DNA of 64,000 nucleotides from Candidatus Krumholzibacteriia bacterium (GCA_041484665.1 JBGPIA010000001.1:448001-512000), one strand, 5' to 3'. Shown: positions 1,655 to 60,166, numbered from the stretch's first letter. The notes: generated by a model from the letters alone, not told the origin. A program made the numbers and translations.

Positions 1655-2770
1655 TCAGACGCCGGACCGCGCCGCCAGCACCTGCGCGTAGACCGCCGCG
1701 GTGGCCGCAGCCATGCGCTCGGAGCGGTACACCTGCGCGCGCGCCACGCGCTGCAGGGCGCTGGCGCGGGCAGCGGGCAGCGCCTGCAGCAGGGTCGCGA
1801 TGCGCTGCGCCCACGCCGGCGCGTCGCCGGCCGGCGCCAGGCAGTCCGGGAGCAGCCCCAGCTCTCGGCAGGCCGGCAGATCGCTGCACAGGAGAGGAAC
1901 CCCCAGCAGCATGGCTTCCTTGGGCACGGCGGGGGATCCTTCGCCGCTGATGGATGGGAACAGCAGCAGATCGATCGCGCCCAGTAGATCCGGGACGTCC
2001 TCGCGCGGCCCCAGCCAGCGGATCTGCTCTGCGATGCCCTCGCGCCGCGCCAGCGAGTCCAGGGCCGCGCGCAGTGGCCCTTCTCCCGCGATCAGCCACG
2101 AGGGGCGGGCCCCCTCGCGGCGCAGCGCGCCGAGCGCGCGCACCAAGACCGCGTGCCCCTTGTGCGCCACGAGCTGCCCGACGCTCAGCAGCACCGCTTC
2201 GTCGTCGCGCAGCCCCAACGCGGCGCGGACCTCCCCCCGCGGGCGCGACGCGGCGGCGCGCGCGGCGTCGATGGCGCTGGGCACCACGAAGATGCGCCAC
2301 GGAGCGATTCCGTCCCGCACGAGCTGCTCGCGCACGCTGTGCGCCACGGCAATCCAGGCGTCCGGCCAGCGCCGCTTGCGCCGTGCCAGCAGGTTGCGCG
2401 CGAGCGGGAAGTCCACGCGGCGGTGTGCCAAGAGCGGCGGGCGCTGCCCACGCCCTGCGCGCGGCGCCAACAGCCGCGCCAGGTGCCCGAGCGTGACCGC
2501 ATGGGCGGTGTGGGCGTGGACGAGGGCGATGTCGCTGCCGCGCAGCAGCCGCGCGAGCGCCGGCAGCGCGGCCGGTGAGATCTCGCCCTGCAACGGCAGC
2601 TCCACGACCGACACGCCCGCGACGCCGCGCAGCCGTGCGGCGAGCGGTGCGCCGCACGGCACGGCCACCGTGGCGGGATGCCCCGCGCGCGCAAGGTCGC
2701 GCGTCAGCAGCGCGACCTGCCGCTGCCCGCCGCGATCCTCTCGTCCGGTGTCCAAGTGCAGCACGTGCAT
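1655..2770 (-). CDS. Glycosyltransferase family 4 (GT-B)
   Basis: MHVLHLDTGREDRGGQRQ, VHAHT, HRRVDF, GQLVAHKGH, EGSPAVPKEAM (E-x7-E). Confidence 0.9.
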   Translation of the reverse strand: MHVLHLDTGREDRGGQRQVALLTRDLARAGHPATVAVPCGAPLAARLRGVAGVSVVELPLQGEISPAALPALARLLRGSDIALVHAHTAHAVTLGHLARLLAPRAGRGQRPPLLAHRRVDFPLARNLLARRKRRWPDAWIAVAHSVREQLVRDGIAPWRIFVVPSAIDAARAAASRPRGEVRAALGLRDDEAVLLSVGQLVAHKGHAVLVRALGALRREGARPSWLIAGEGPLRAALDSLARREGIAEQIRWLGPREDVPDLLGAIDLLLFPSISGEGSPAVPKEAMLLGVPLLCSDLPACRELGLLPDCLAPAGDAPAWAQRIATLLQALPAARASALQRVARAQVYRSERMAAATAAVYAQVLAARSGV

Positions 2771-2830
2771 CGAGCCGCCCACGATACACGCGAGGGCGAC
2801 GCGAGGGCCATCTCGCGCTATGCTGCGGCC

Positions 2831-3937
2831 ATGCGCACGCGCGCCATCTTGATCGAGCGCCTCGGTCCGCCCGGTGTGCTGGCCGAGCGCGAGGTGCCGC
2901 TGCCCGACCCCGGTCCGGGTCAAGTCCACGTGACCGTGGAGGCCGCGGGCGTCAACTTCGCCGACCTCATGATGCGTGAGGGGCTCTACTCCACGGTCCC
3001 GCCCCGGCCCTTCAGCCCAGGCTTCGAGATCGCCGGGCGCGTGGCGCGCGTCGGCCCCCCGGCGTGCGATGCGGCAGGACCCGGCCCAGCGCCGGGGACT
3101 CCGTTCAGCCAGCCGGAGGTATTCAAGGAAGGCGACCGCGTCGTGGCGCTCCTGCGCTACGGCGGCTATGCCCACGACGTGATCGTCCCCGCGGACCATT
3201 TGTTTCCGTGCCCCGACGCCTTCTCCGCCATCGAGGCCGCCGCCGTCCCCGTGGTGTTCCTGACGGCATGGGTGTGCCTGTTCGAGGCCGCCCGCGTCCG
3301 TCCGCAGGAGACCGTGCTCGTGCTGGGAGCCGGGGGCGGAGTGGGGACCGCAGCCGTCCAGCTCGCGGCACAGCACGGCCTGCGCGTCGTGGCCACTGCC
3401 GGCGATCCGCGCAAGCGCGAGTTCGTCTGCAAGGAGCTGGGCGCGGCCGCCTGTTTCGACTCGCGCGGGGACTGGGAGCAAGACGTACGCGCGCTGCTGG
3501 GCGAGCGAGGCCTCGATGTAGCGCTGGACCCCGTCGGCGGCCGGGCGACGGCTGCCTGCCGCCGGCTGCTGGGCCCGTTGGGCCGGCTGGTGTTCTACGG
3601 CCTCAGTGCGGCGGCGCCCGGCCAGCGCCGCAACTGGGCGCGCGTTGCGTGGACGCTGCTGCACACGCCCTGGTTCCATCCCCTGGGGCTCATCGAGCCC
3701 AACCTCGGCATCCTCGGCGTGCACCTGCTGCACCTGGGCCGCCGCGAGCCGCTGCTCCGCGAGGCCTTCGCGCAGCTGGCGCCCCGCCTGGTCGCGCGCC
3801 GGCTGCGGCCGGTGATCGACAGCGTGTTCCCCCTGACGCGCGCGGGCGCGGTCCAGGCTCACGCACATCTGCACGCGCGCCGCAACCTGGGCAAGGTGGT
3901 GCTCGCGGTGGACGCACCGGCCGCGGGTACGCGGTGA
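2831..3937 (+). CDS. Zinc-independent MDR / quinone oxidoreductase (VAT-1-like)
   Basis: AAGVNFADLMMREGLY, PGFEIAG, LGAGGGVGTAAVQLA, RRNLGKVVL. Confidence 0.9.
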   Translation: MRTRAILIERLGPPGVLAEREVPLPDPGPGQVHVTVEAAGVNFADLMMREGLYSTVPPRPFSPGFEIAGRVARVGPPACDAAGPGPAPGTPFSQPEVFKEGDRVVALLRYGGYAHDVIVPADHLFPCPDAFSAIEAAAVPVVFLTAWVCLFEAARVRPQETVLVLGAGGGVGTAAVQLAAQHGLRVVATAGDPRKREFVCKELGAAACFDSRGDWEQDVRALLGERGLDVALDPVGGRATAACRRLLGPLGRLVFYGLSAAAPGQRRNWARVAWTLLHTPWFHPLGLIEPNLGILGVHLLHLGRREPLLREAFAQLAPRLVARRLRPVIDSVFPLTRAGAVQAHAHLHARRNLGKVVLAVDAPAAGTR

Positions 3938-50075: not shown

Positions 50076-50558
50076 GTGGCAAAGCTCGAGGCCGGCCTCA
50101 AGGCGCCGGCGTTCCGGCTCAAGGACGGCGGCGGCGCCTGGGTGAGCCTGAAGGATGACATCCTCGGCAGCCGCGCGGTGATCTACTTCTACCCGAAGGA
50201 CGACACGCCGGGCTGCACCAAGGAGGCGTGCAGCTTCCGCGACCACTCCGCGGAGCTGCGCAAGCGCAGGGTGAAGGTCTACGGCATCAGCGCGGATACG
50301 GAGGCGAGCCACCAGAAGTTCGCGGCGAAGTACACCCTGCGCTTCCCCCTGCTCTGCGACCCGGGACACGTGGTCGCCCGCGCCTACGGCGCGTACGGCG
50401 AGAAGACCATGTACGGCAAGAAGGTGACGGGGGTGATCCGCAGCACGATCCTGCTGGAGGGGGACGGCCGCATCGCGCACATCTGGCGTAAGGTGGACAC
50501 CGCGCGTCACGCGCAGGAGATCCTCACCAAGCTGGACGAGCTCGACGCGCGCGCCTAG
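50076..50558 (+). CDS. bcp: Peroxiredoxin BCP/PrxQ (2-Cys)
   Basis: YFYPKDDTPGCTKEACSFRD; AGGAGG RBS. Confidence 0.93.
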   Translation: MAKLEAGLKAPAFRLKDGGGAWVSLKDDILGSRAVIYFYPKDDTPGCTKEACSFRDHSAELRKRRVKVYGISADTEASHQKFAAKYTLRFPLLCDPGHVVARAYGAYGEKTMYGKKVTGVIRSTILLEGDGRIAHIWRKVDTARHAQEILTKLDELDARA

Positions 50559-55558: not shown

Positions 55559-56347
55559 ATGCCACGACGCGTCAGTGCACGGCTGGACGGCATCGCCGAG
55601 CCGGTGGGCGCCCTCCAGCAGGGGACCGCGCGGCGACGCCCGCGGGTGGTCATCACCATCGGTCCGGGTACCCCGGTGCTGGAGCGGATCGACATGATCC
55701 GCGTGGACGCGGCCCATGGCACCCTGCACGAGCTGGCTGCGCTGCGCGCGAGCTACCCGTGTCCCGCCATCCTGGACATCCCGGGGATGGACACCACCGA
55801 ACGCACATCGTTGCTCACAGCCACCGAGCTCATGATCTTCGCGTGCACCGAGCGGTTCGAGTGGGTGAGCCTGCGTGGGATCGACCGCGCCGACTTGTTG
55901 TACCATGCACGCGAGGTCCTCGACCCGGCGGTCAGGGTGGCGGCCACCCTCTCGACCTCTGGCGTCACAGAACAGTCCCTGCGCGAGATCTGTGTTGCGG
56001 CCGACTGCCTGATCCTGAGCCGTGAAGACCTCGTTTCGACCGTGGGCACGCGCGGCCTGCGCCGCTGCGTTCAGCTCGGTGTCCTCGAGGCGGCTCACTT
56101 TGGCAAGCCGTGCCTCCTCGCAACGGGACTCCCTTCGACCGCCCCCCTGCCCGACGTGGAGTTGAGCGGGCTGGTGGCGTTGGCCCGCGACGGGTGCGCG
56201 GGCTTCATCCTCAGCGGCCCGATCACCGCGGCCGCAGAGCCGCAGATCAGCATCGACCGTCTGCAGATGGTGCTCGCGCCCGCCGAGGGCGGCCCCGGGC
56301 TGCGCCCGGCTGCCCAGCTCGCGGGGCCAGCCAGCCTCGTGCTCTAG
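55559..56347 (+). CDS. Pyruvate-kinase-like barrel-only protein (no B or C domain, catalytic residues degenerate)
   Basis: VVITIGP, IRVDAAHG, ILDIPG, LILSREDL, GKPCLLAT, DGCAGFILSG in the same order as PK motifs. Confidence 0.7.
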   Translation: MPRRVSARLDGIAEPVGALQQGTARRRPRVVITIGPGTPVLERIDMIRVDAAHGTLHELAALRASYPCPAILDIPGMDTTERTSLLTATELMIFACTERFEWVSLRGIDRADLLYHAREVLDPAVRVAATLSTSGVTEQSLREICVAADCLILSREDLVSTVGTRGLRRCVQLGVLEAAHFGKPCLLATGLPSTAPLPDVELSGLVALARDGCAGFILSGPITAAAEPQISIDRLQMVLAPAEGGPGLRPAAQLAGPASLVL

Positions 56348-57520: not shown

Positions 57521-58831
57521 ATGGATGCGGTCACACCCTGCGACCCTTGGCGGCAGCGCACCCGATGGGTCGCGGCGGCGATCTTCTTGATGACTGCCTC
57601 CTTCATCCTCACCAAGACGGGGCGGGACGCGCTCTACTTCCAGGGCCGCGGCCTCTACGGACTCCCCACCGCCTACATTGCCATGGCCATGCTGGCTTTG
57701 CCGATGGCCGCCGCCGCGCTGAGCCTGATGCGCGTGGTCGGGGCACGCCGCGCGCGCGTGCTGGCGACCTCGGCCGTCGCCCTGGTGATCGGCGCGTTCG
57801 AGGGCCTGGCACGTCCGGGCAGCGGGCCGGTGATGACGGCGTTCTTCACGCTCGTCCTGCTGGCGTTCGGGATCCTGTTCTCGATGGGATGGCTGCTGGG
57901 CGCGGACCTGCTGGACCAGGCTCCACGCGCCAAGCTGGCGCACGCCTACAGCGTGATCGGGGCGGCTTCGATCGCCGGGGGAGTCGCGGCCGCGCTGCTG
58001 GCAAAGCTGCTGGCGCGCCACCTGGAGCCCCAACGGTTCTTGCTGCTGGGGGCCGTGGCGCTGGCGGGGTCCGCGTCGGTGATGGCCGCCACCCAAGGGC
58101 GTTTCCCGACCCGCATGAGCGCGGCCAGAGCGGATGCGGCGGCCCCCGGCTGCTCGGATCTGCGGCCGCTGCTGCGAACGCGTTATGTTGGATTGCTGCT
58201 GCTCACCGGGATGACGGCCGCGCTGGGTGGCTTGCTCATCGAGTTCCAGTTCTACGTCGCCGCGGCCACGTCGCGCAACGCGGTGCGCGCGAACACGAAC
58301 CTCTTCGCCAACTTCTACCTGTTGCTCAATCTGCTCGCGCTTTCCGCGCAGCTGTGGCTGATGCCCCGCTTCCAGCGCGCGCTGGGGGTGTACGGGAGCC
58401 TGTTCGTGCTCCCTGGCGCGTTGTTGGGCGGCTCGCTGGCGCTGTTGGCGGACGCATCCCTGCTCACACGCTCGCTACTGCGCGTGACCGAGGGCGGCCT
58501 CAAGGCGTCCATCCACCGCTCGAACTGGGAGCAGGCCTACGTGCCGCTGACGCGCGCGCAACGCTCACTGGCCAAGCTGCTGGTAGACGGCGCCGGCGCG
58601 CGCATTACCGAGGGGCTGGCAGCGGTAATGCTCTACGCGTGGCTGCGCTGGATCGTGGCCGGCCGCGCGCTGGTGGGCCAGAGCACGGCATGGGTCACCT
58701 GGTCGTTGCTGGCCAGCGCCCTGCTCTGGATCGCGCTCACGCGTGCGCTGCGGCGCAGCCTCGTCCCCGCCACCGTTGCCCATGGCGCGGACGCGGAGCT
58801 GCACCTGGACATCCCGCTGCCGGATACTTGA
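57521..58831 (+). CDS. Npt1/Npt2 (TLC) nucleotide-transporter-like MFS protein; possible Sec readthrough to 58894
   Basis: LTKTGRDALYF, IEFQFY, EGGLKASIHRSNWEQAYVPL..R..AKLLVDG motifs; about 12 TM. Confidence 0.75.
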   Translation: MDAVTPCDPWRQRTRWVAAAIFLMTASFILTKTGRDALYFQGRGLYGLPTAYIAMAMLALPMAAAALSLMRVVGARRARVLATSAVALVIGAFEGLARPGSGPVMTAFFTLVLLAFGILFSMGWLLGADLLDQAPRAKLAHAYSVIGAASIAGGVAAALLAKLLARHLEPQRFLLLGAVALAGSASVMAATQGRFPTRMSAARADAAAPGCSDLRPLLRTRYVGLLLLTGMTAALGGLLIEFQFYVAAATSRNAVRANTNLFANFYLLLNLLALSAQLWLMPRFQRALGVYGSLFVLPGALLGGSLALLADASLLTRSLLRVTEGGLKASIHRSNWEQAYVPLTRAQRSLAKLLVDGAGARITEGLAAVMLYAWLRWIVAGRALVGQSTAWVTWSLLASALLWIALTRALRRSLVPATVAHGADAELHLDIPLPDT

Positions 58832-58840
58832 GTGACGACG

Positions 58841-58862
58841 GCGACCCTCGGAGAGGGCTTGC
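58841..58862 (+). promoter_or_regulatory. Candidate bacterial SECIS element
   Basis: gcga-ccctc-GGA-gaggg-c-ttgc hairpin whose G-starting apical loop begins 19 nt after the TGA at 58829-31. Confidence 0.5.
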
Positions 58863-58908
58863 AACGGCAGGAGTGCGCGAAACGGGCGTGGTAGCGGTCG
58901 GGGCAGGA

Positions 58909-59385
58909 TCAGCCGCGCTGCAGCAGCCGCGCCGGCACGCCGGCCACCGTCGCGCCCGGCGCCACGTCGCGCGTGACGACGGCGCCGGCGCCAACCATGG
59001 CCCCGTCGCCGACGGAAATCCCGCCCAACATCACCACTCCCGACCCGATGGAGACGCGCTGGCCGATGCGCGTGCGTACGAAGCGCGGCTGCCAGTCCGC
59101 CTCACTCTCCGGCTCGCCCTGCGCATTGACCGCGCGGGGGTGCTTGTCGTTGATGAACATGACGCCGTGGCCGATGAAGCAGCCATCGCCGATCTCCACA
59201 CCCTCGCAGATGAACGTATGGCTGCTGATCTTGCAGTTGCGCCCGATGACGGCGCCTTTCTGGATCTCCACGAAGGCGCCGATGCGCGTGTCATCGCCGA
59301 TGCTACAGCCGTACAGATTCACGAACTGGTAGAGCTTCACCCTCTCGCCGAGCTTCACGTCGGGGGCGATGCAGACGTACTCCAC
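58909..59385 (-). CDS. Hexapeptide-repeat sugar N-acyltransferase (WbpD/WxcM-like)
   Basis: NLYGCSIG, IGAFVEIQK, SSHTFICEGV, FINDKHPRA, GAGAVVTRDV, GVPAR. Confidence 0.9.
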   Translation of the reverse strand: MEYVCIAPDVKLGERVKLYQFVNLYGCSIGDDTRIGAFVEIQKGAVIGRNCKISSHTFICEGVEIGDGCFIGHGVMFINDKHPRAVNAQGEPESEADWQPRFVRTRIGQRVSIGSGVVMLGGISVGDGAMVGAGAVVTRDVAPGATVAGVPARLLQRG

Positions 59386-59446: not shown

Positions 59447-59899
59447 TCACGGGAGCTTCTTGACGGTCTCGAGCACTTCCTCGACGTGTCCGTCGGGCTT
59501 CACCCGGACGAAGCTGCGGACCACGCGGCCGTCCTCGTCGATCACGTAGGTGATCCGTTTGGTGTAGGCGTCGTCCGGCGAGGTGACCGCGCCGTATTCG
59601 GTGGTCATCACCCGGTCTAGATCCGACAGGAGGGGAAACGGCAGGGCATGCCTGCGGGCGAAGGCGGCGTTCTCGGCGAGCGGGTCGAGGCTGACGCCGA
59701 GGATGGCCACGTTGCTCCGCTGGAACTCGTCGTAATGCTGGGCAAAGGCGAGCCCCTCCGCCGCGCACGTCTGTGTGTCGGCCTTCGGGTAGAACCAGAG
59801 GACGACCTTTCTTCCCTCGTACTCGCTCAACCGCACATCGCGTCCCGCGTGATCGGGCAGGACGAAGTCGGGGGCGAGATCCCCGGGCTTCAGCACCAT
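59447..59899 (-). CDS. Peroxiredoxin BCP/PrxQ-like (1-Cys, atypical active site)
   Basis: APDFVL, WFYPKADTQTCAAEG, GVSLD, FPLLSD, RITYVID; AAAGGAG RBS. Confidence 0.85.
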   Translation of the reverse strand: MVLKPGDLAPDFVLPDHAGRDVRLSEYEGRKVVLWFYPKADTQTCAAEGLAFAQHYDEFQRSNVAILGVSLDPLAENAAFARRHALPFPLLSDLDRVMTTEYGAVTSPDDAYTKRITYVIDEDGRVVRSFVRVKPDGHVEEVLETVKKLP

Positions 59900-60166
59900 G
59901 GCTCCTTTCGCATCTCTAAGAATACCCAAGCTCCCCCCGCTGGCGTCAACGTCCGAAGGCGCGTCCCCCGGGCCGGCCGCCCCCGACCTCCCGGTCCACG
60001 CCCGCGCCCGCGGATGCGGGGCGGACCCGCGGAGACCTCCCAGACCCGGGCCCTGTGGGTGGGCTCACGCCTCCCGAGCAGCCGGGCCGTCATCCTACAG
60101 GGCATCTGGGCGGCAGAAACGACCGGACTGGCCGGCGCGGAGGGGGCTGGGTAGCATAGGGAGACC

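Follow-up and report, generated by a model that had tools for sequence, protein, structure and literature searches.

Known selenoproteins are mostly redox enzymes, and the MFS is the largest transporter fold. To this fold belong the NTT/AAA ATP:ADP antiporters (TLC, PF03219; TIGR00769), whose structures 9J3J-9J3O come from the NTT1 proteins of Arabidopsis and Chlamydia pneumoniae; our literature search found no paper on these structures. According to the available part of PMC2606016, all ATP/ADP carriers retain one particular lysine (K527 of AtNTT1, K446 of PamNTT1), and a K446E exchange prevents the uptake of Pi and impairs the import of ATP. NTT-like proteins, including NTT-HEAT(-cNBD) fusions, also occur in free-living bacteria, and most of these are functionally untested according to the text available from PMC5381601. 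Transporters that contain selenocysteine (Sec) have been predicted before: the available part of PMC13188914 names in its Table 1 MerT-like proteins (PF02411), a P-type ATPase, YeeE/YedE (PF04143), SaoP (NF040733) and SO_0444 (NF033936).

A transporter gene with an in-frame TGA

The window, which is the whole stretch of 64,000 nucleotides that was analysed, contains at 57521..58894 (+) a gene of 457 codons plus TAG for an NTT/TLC-like MFS transporter in which a TGA is predicted to be read as selenocysteine. The gene starts with the ATG at 57521, and the residues ...HLDIPLPDT precede the in-frame TGA (codon 437, 58829..58831, +), beyond which the frame remains open for 20 codons (VTTATLGEGLQRQECAKRAW, 58832..58891, +) until the true stop codon TAG at 58892..58894 (+). 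This is the course of the frame that an earlier sequence-only reading of the window had described, and its coordinates proved to be exact. A convergent hexapeptide acetyltransferase gene has its end at 58909, 14 nt beyond the TAG. The TGA is covered without a single difference by contigs of two runs (X4 and X6), which may share their source with the present DNA, and all 5 close relatives within the phylum carry one in-frame TGA each. A scan for promoters and terminators at the locus gave no match. Further upstream in the window, a short pyruvate-kinase-like ORF was observed at 55559-56347 (+), whose 262 aa fall far below the length of a full pyruvate kinase and match PRK06247 weakly (E 0.001).

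TGA and cysteine alternate at codon 437

Related loci were obtained by an alignment-based scan of genome contigs, as a single-protein query gave none, and the relatives considered here are those within the reach of HMMER. Codon 437 could be placed in 145 of 171 loci; the other 26 had truncations or frameshifts, were long fusions or escaped the script. In the 145 loci, this codon was TGA in 57, TGC in 55, TGT in 32 and GTG in one (a distant fusion). When only unique loci were counted (n=136, query included), there were 51 with TGA, 84 with a Cys codon and the one with GTG, and neither TAA nor TAG was found at this site in either set. The invariance of the TGA argues against an ordinary stop codon, because a free stop would be expected to drift to TAA or TAG, as the true stops of the Cys clade have done (33 TGA, 29 TAA and 11 TAG). 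In addition, a stop within the ten codons that follow the TGA was seen in none of the 51 loci in frame, compared with 22/51 and 12/51 in the other two frames.

The tail behind the TGA is conserved at the protein level, with synonymous change, and it matches the tail of the Cys forms. The consensus of the TGA forms, in which the predicted motif is P-D-x-U, reads P-D-[TSG]-U-[VPI]-[TI]-[TV]-A-T-L-G-E-G, and Gly+7 is invariant while all four Gly codons are used for it. In a big Cys clade, which accounts for 72 of the 84 Cys loci, the corresponding segment is C-x-R-F-P-D-Q-C-P-C-T-T-E-L-G-K-G, with three tail cysteines in the arrangement C-x6-C-P-C. The sequence-only reading had suggested homologues with a tail like PDxCxxTTxLGxG, and this motif matches the PDQ-C-PCTTELGKG of the big Cys clade; the opposite outcome that it had considered, homologues ending at PDT with nothing conserved beyond and no Cys opposite the TGA, was not observed. 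A second Cys near the Sec position is present in only 20/51 Sec loci, so no resolving thiol is conserved there, and this speaks against a catalytic disulfide cycle contained in the protein itself.

Protein databases cut this family short at the UGA. Among the 120 protein relatives listed, 106 have their end directly before codon 437, Cys occupies the site in 13 and one stops short of it. A further 127 representatives (at most 600 aa, 14 long fusions having been set aside) comprised 60 that end before the site, 41 with Cys, 8 with another residue and 18 that stop short of it. Trp was never seen in this column of the alignment. The GenBank relatives are truncated 'hypothetical proteins', such as MFN0150855.1 (440 aa, ending LPDT), and records of the family come from Acidobacteriota, Gemmatimonadota, Myxococcota and Krumholzibacteriota/Latescibacterota. 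A tree was built with the tail excluded, by a quick search with midpoint rooting on 68 rows, for which only one in every five members of the Cys clade was kept and two rows were removed; it required 6 changes between Sec and Cys, 5 of them forced by well-supported branches. The tree fits repeated replacement of Sec by Cys, a direction that is one reading of a midpoint-rooted topology.

A SECIS-type hairpin is specific to the TGA forms

Just behind the TGA lies a candidate bacterial SECIS-type hairpin (58841..58862, +) with an upper stem CCCUC/GAGGG and a GGA triloop at 58850-58852. Its G-starting loop thus begins at +19, precisely where the sequence-only reading had put it. The hairpin (GCGA CCCUC GGA GAGGG C UUGC) has a folding energy of -11.6 kcal/mol and 5 bp, or 9 when the bulge is spanned. 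With its GGA loop, its 5 bp, its distance of 18 nt from the UGA and its -11.6 kcal/mol, it agrees with all four features given in the legend of Fig. 2 in the available text of PMC13188914. On the single sequence alone, the hairpin is not exceptional: shuffling gave z values of 0.27, -0.63 and 0.66 for three wider segments, and -2.05 (7/200 shuffles) for the 29-nt hairpin. A hairpin in exactly the same register follows 94 of the 101,024 TGA triplets of the genome.

The decisive signal for the predicted recoding is comparative. A 5-bp stem that closes a loop at +19 (GGN) was found in 43/51 TGA loci but in only 1/84 Cys loci (1/12 outside the big Cys clade). The native sequence folded better than its synonymous recodings in 50/51 TGA loci (mean z -1.51), whereas this was the case in 38/84 Cys loci (mean z -0.03). 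The codon for Leu+6 is CTC in 44 of 46 TGA loci, while six codons are used among the Cys loci. Covariation was evaluated in 46 of the 51 TGA loci, where double changes occurred at 6 of 7 pairs, 90% of the cells could pair and none of 500 shuffles reached the score; the five loci left out, three of which have an LGPRV tail that breaks the +19 register, raise the paired share by their omission. These three LGPRV-tail loci fold a G-starting loop of their own. Slid controls had far lower covariation scores, and RNAalifold agreed with the hairpin. Part of the stem pairing follows from coding, since the TLGEG motif itself favours the stem, and the synonymous control corrects for this partly. The hairpin has no U-run, no terminator was found at the locus and the structure is lost in the Cys forms.

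Selenocysteine machinery of the genome

The sequence-only reading had named selA, selB, selC and selD as genes to look for, and all of them are present in the genome. A tRNA-Sec above the Rfam cut-off is the sole tRNA with a UCA anticodon that was found; selA and selB were identified, and selD contains its own in-frame TGA, followed by a hairpin with a GGA triloop at +18 that resembles the hairpin of the transporter gene. An in-frame TGA with a similar hairpin behind it was also found in 2 of the 15 AhpC/TSA matches of the genome (G000:C15:47453-47821, -, and G000:C2:780512-780877, +), with motifs of the TxxU and UxxC types. A search for the molybdopterin Fe4S4 domain in this genome revealed no in-frame stop inside that domain. 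ARAGORN reported no tRNA gene on the largest contig (G000:C1, 1.06 Mb), which holds the window, and 18 on contig C2.

Across genomes, selA was present in all 27 with the TGA form, in 39 of the 47 Cys-form genomes (G244 and G272 among them are unpublished) and in 200 of 208 genomes of the phylum. The co-occurrence of selA is weak evidence and does not discriminate, because this gene is near-universal in these lineages, including genomes with the Cys form.

Taken together, the alternation of TGA and Cys, the conserved tail, the TGA-specific hairpin and the Sec machinery support the Sec-tailed protein end PDT-U-VTTATLGEG that the sequence-only reading had put forward. Because relatives carry at this spot either the same UGA with a recoding-type hairpin or a Cys codon, UGA codon 437 is very probably read as selenocysteine.

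An NTT-like carrier with a predicted C-terminal helix

AlphaFold, supplied with an alignment of read-through homologues, predicted 12 transmembrane helices (pTM 0.91), and together with fold matches and conservation this places a predicted 12-helix MFS carrier domain at residues 9-420 (57545..58780, +). The best fold matches were AtNTT1 and Chlamydia NTT1 (TM 0.74; Z 33.5, rmsd 2.6 A over 410 residues), whereas the next family reached a Z of 26.6; in the PDB, only two NTT1 sequences matched the family profile (E 1.5e-9). Searches of Pfam and NCBIfam with the query gave no family match. Three relatives matched TIGR00769 weakly (19-23 bits against a cut-off of 387) and the query did not, and a few relatives carry a precomputed PF03219. 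By these scores, the query is a distant NTT/AAA homologue and not a scored member, as it lies below the cut-offs of Pfam TLC and TIGR00769.

The core of the carrier has an NTT-like set of Arg, Lys, Asp and Glu residues and no conserved Cys; the invariant or near-invariant polar residues are R35, D36, R321, E324, H332, R333, W336, E337, R348, K352, D356 and E364. The last of these (58610..58612, +; Glu in 97/100 rows) aligns to the lysine in the GKSGG motif of Chlamydia and Arabidopsis NTT1, which we equate with K527/K446 from the numbering, as it is K448 in chain 9j3n and, in 9j3j, K443 with an offset of about 84-85 to be added. With Glu in place of the phosphate-binding Lys of the NTT proteins, the protein resembles the NTT carriers by its fold and descent and is probably no ATP/ADP translocase. 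Its substrate is likely a small phosphorylated or nucleotide-like solute rather than ATP/ADP plus Pi. The earlier label of an Npt1/Npt2-like, nucleotide-type carrier is therefore apt for fold and ancestry only, with NTT1 as best match.

MFS termini are cytoplasmic, and the distribution of K/R in the present protein, which is rich in these residues at the N-terminus, in loops 2-3 and 6-7 and at the C-terminus, fits this arrangement. The model confidence (pLDDT) of the tail was 42-66 when most sequences of the alignment stopped at the TGA and rose to 72-88 when read-through homologues were aligned (blocks of 72, 88 and 87). With the latter alignment, the tail was predicted to form a helix from 438 to 456 that begins right after Sec437, so that Sec would sit at its N-terminal end.

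Neighbouring genes and a second candidate selenoenzyme

The sequence-only reading had pointed to a peroxiredoxin two genes away. An AhpC/TSA peroxiredoxin does lie there (59447-59929, -), but its relevance did not hold, as this neighbour is not conserved across loci. Among the 88 nearest neighbours of 51 Sec and 12 near-Cys loci, no family recurred widely, hence no conserved neighbour of the Sec-form genes was found, and the peroxiredoxin link was rejected with only 3 AhpC/TSA matches in this set (in the window and at loci L051 and L073). The window holds a further Cys-type BCP/peroxiredoxin gene at 50135-50558 (+), and both it and the one at 59447-59929 lie at most 10 kb from the transporter gene. 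At L051, a peroxiredoxin-like/DsbD-N gene with an in-frame TGA (UxxC; about 2440-3267, +) was observed upstream of the Sec-form transporter.

In the big Cys clade (n=72), a GH63-like glucosidase occurred at 48 loci, cytochrome b at 35 and a Mo-oxidoreductase at 32, the latter two forming a pair; these figures are motif counts over loci of uneven length. A second, tail-less NTT-like gene (TLC match, R-x-G-D motif) lies near 4/51 Sec loci and 3/72 big-clade Cys loci; such genes were located at L038:4092-5468, L051:6320-7582, L053:6337-7620, L128:257-1681 and L065:8165-9505. In the genome of the window itself, an NTT-like domain at G000:C13:90326-91555 (-; locus L192) opens a frame of 1109 codons and is probably an NTT-HEAT-type fusion.

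A class-I flavin disulfide reductase of the GR/MerA/LPD-like type was found near the transporter at 15 unique Cys loci (one of them, L067, unpublished) and 4 unplaced loci, and it lies directly upstream in 13. Its redox motif, AGTCLxxG-U-IPKK, has an in-frame TGA at the second Cys, followed by its own hairpin, and the predicted motif is CxxxxU. At L070:1934-3274 (+), the protein has 446 aa, with the TGA at 2066 and a conserved hairpin whose 4-nt loop starts at +18; the gene also occurs at L061, L066, L068, L069, L071, L072, L091, L106, L109, L159, L160, L169, L183 and other loci. Orthologues were found in 11 of the 45 Cys-form genomes, and all 11 carry the TGA. Among its best 25 matches in NCBIfam no cut-off was passed, the closest families being mercuric and glutathione amide reductases; the best PDB sequence match is mercuric reductase, and the protein ends in FPT rather than HPT. 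A search of the genome of the window did not find this reductase (best match 31%, no TGA), nor was an orthologue found in any of the 27 TGA-form genomes, where the best match reached 42% across the 155 aa at the N-terminus. It is also absent from the table of 119 families in the available part of PMC13188914, so that a second apparently unlisted selenoenzyme stands alongside the transporter. The reductase ties part of the transporter family to thiol/metal redox chemistry and is not an obligatory partner. A different flavin reductase was observed at L200:1501-1956 in genome G212, which has a Sec-form transporter; in this reductase, the TGA occupies the position of the first Cys of the motif (GGT-U-VNEG-C, UxxxxC).

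Proposed role of the selenocysteine tail and alternatives

We propose, with a probability of about 0.5 overall, that the NTT-like carrier with its Sec tail acts as a redox- or metal-sensitive transport switch, a role close to the redox gating or metal binding that the sequence-only reading had suggested; with Sec itself taken as given, the chances of the switch role are again about even. SelB would bind the GGA-loop hairpin and Sec would be inserted at position 437, in a tail that would face the cytoplasm by MFS convention and the K/R distribution. The helix 438-456 may dock on the inner face of the carrier, as the model confidence scores suggest, and oxidation of the selenol or binding of a metal could then open or close the inner gate. 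If Sec insertion failed, translation would stop at the UGA and leave a complete carrier without the tail, so that the availability of selenium could also determine the number of regulated carriers. A fuller and decidedly more tentative version is that this is the first MFS/NTT selenoprotein family, in which a Sec-tipped helix gates transport by redox state or metal and competition at the UGA yields regulated full-length and unregulated tail-less forms, tying transport to selenium supply.

Two explanations dispense with Sec. The TGA could be an ordinary stop codon, with a relic tail behind it and a hairpin that belongs to some other RNA element, for instance a terminator; in favour of this, the carrier domain is already complete ahead of the TGA, the single hairpin does not rise above shuffles in the wider segments, and TGA also serves as a true stop in the genome and the family. 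This is nevertheless very unlikely in view of the lack of TAA and TAG at all 51 loci, which contrasts with the mixed stops of the Cys clade, of a tail that is kept as amino acids through synonymous change and matches the Cys-form tail, and of a hairpin that has no U-run and is missing in the Cys forms. Still less probable is that a suppressor-type tRNA or an alternative genetic code lets Cys or Trp be inserted at the UGA. Cys is the alternative residue of the family and UGA-reading Cys tRNAs occur in some bacteria, but the one tRNA with a UCA anticodon that was found lies above the Rfam cut-off for tRNA-Sec, selA and selD are present, and Trp is absent from the column of codon 437; moreover, TGA terminates neighbouring genes, which rules out codes 4 and 25.

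Two further explanations accept Sec and assign it another task. At the inner mouth of the carrier, the tail might catch a metal, a metalloid or a thiol/selenium species, which it would pass to a soluble reductase in the fashion in which MerT and MerA hand off mercury. The three-Cys tail of the Cys clade is typical of soft-metal ligands, a CxxxxU flavin reductase with mercuric reductase as its best PDB match lies beside part of the Cys loci, and the listed transporter selenoproteins are mostly linked to metal or metalloid resistance in the available text of PMC13188914. We regard such a hand-off as possible yet clearly less probable than the transport switch: the flavin reductase was found neither in the genome of the window nor in the 27 TGA-form genomes and in a minority of the Cys-form genomes, the NTT-like charged core of the carrier contains no conserved Cys, and the commoner neighbours of the Cys clade are glucosidases (48/72) and the pair of cytochrome b and Mo-oxidoreductase (35 and 32 of 72). 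Alternatively, the protein might be a sensor (transceptor) or scaffold, in which a ligand in the carrier moves the Sec helix and a partner reads this movement, as is thought for the coupling in NTT-HEAT-cNBD proteins. The next-closest relatives are indeed NTT-HEAT fusions, which have a cytoplasmic C-terminal module according to the accessible part of PMC5381601, and a second tail-less NTT-like gene lies near a few Sec and Cys loci. This seems improbable, as no partner gene is conserved and a profile comparison detected no kinship between the tail and the HEAT linker. We accordingly favour the transport switch among the roles considered.

Novelty and comparison with known systems

In its section 7 and Table 1, the available part of PMC13188914 (2026, 119 selenoprotein families) contains no MFS or NTT family, and no mention of MFS, Npt1 or an antiporter was found in the accessible text of PMC9312934, PMC13326102, PMC12013277 and PMC13745706. 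One supplement of BSepDB (about 4 million characters, possibly incomplete) gave no match, and the rest of BSepDB could bear on novelty. Our literature search found no paper on a Sec-tailed NTT-like transporter family, and no such transporter family was found in NCBIfam. The present proteins thus appear to be a selenoprotein family, built on an NTT-like MFS carrier, that has not been listed before. The position of Sec, on the short tail of a secondary carrier, suggests that selenium is used for regulation here. The family also offers a handle on the large group of NTT-like carriers in free-living bacteria; its natural Sec, single-Cys and three-Cys variants can be compared directly.

In form, the hairpin does not differ from the canonical bacterial SECIS (Fig. 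2A in the available part of PMC13188914; SelD example in Table 1 of the available part of PMC13326102): its 3-nt loop starts with GG, its stem has at least 5 bp, it lies 18 nt from the UGA and it folds with -11.6 kcal/mol, and by form it is a candidate SelB site. The predicted transporter selenoproteins of PMC13188914 share with the present family the Sec/Cys pair, the nature of a membrane transport protein and the kind of evidence. In view of these predicted precedents (MerT-like, P-ATPase, YeeE, SaoP and SO_0444), Sec in a membrane transporter is less unusual than the sequence-only reading had supposed, although none of those listed in the accessible part of that paper is of the MFS/NTT type, carries a PDxU motif or has its Sec on a helix at the C-terminus.

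The NTT-HEAT(-cNBD) fusions of free-living bacteria are the closest relatives outside the transporter family (E about 1e-49). In the available part of PMC5381601, most of the few motifs printed have an acidic residue or Gly at the position of the NTT lysine, and these fusions too have a cytoplasmic C-terminal extension, with a putative function. Their extension consists of 500 residues of HEAT repeats, whereas that of the present protein (457 aa) has about 35 residues with Sec/Cys. The possibility that the tail is a remnant of HEAT repeats found no support, since only the last transmembrane helix aligned in a profile comparison (probability 36%). With the NTT/AAA antiporters, the query shares the 12-helix MFS fold and the segment E-x-A-Y-x-P-L...K-x-x-x-D. 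It differs from them in its low identity (12-16%), in the Glu that takes the place of their phosphate-binding Lys and in its Sec/Cys tail, which has no counterpart in the solved structures, where the alignment ends at residue 423. Compared with the NTT/AAA antiporters, the present family occurs in free-living bacteria of soil and sediment.
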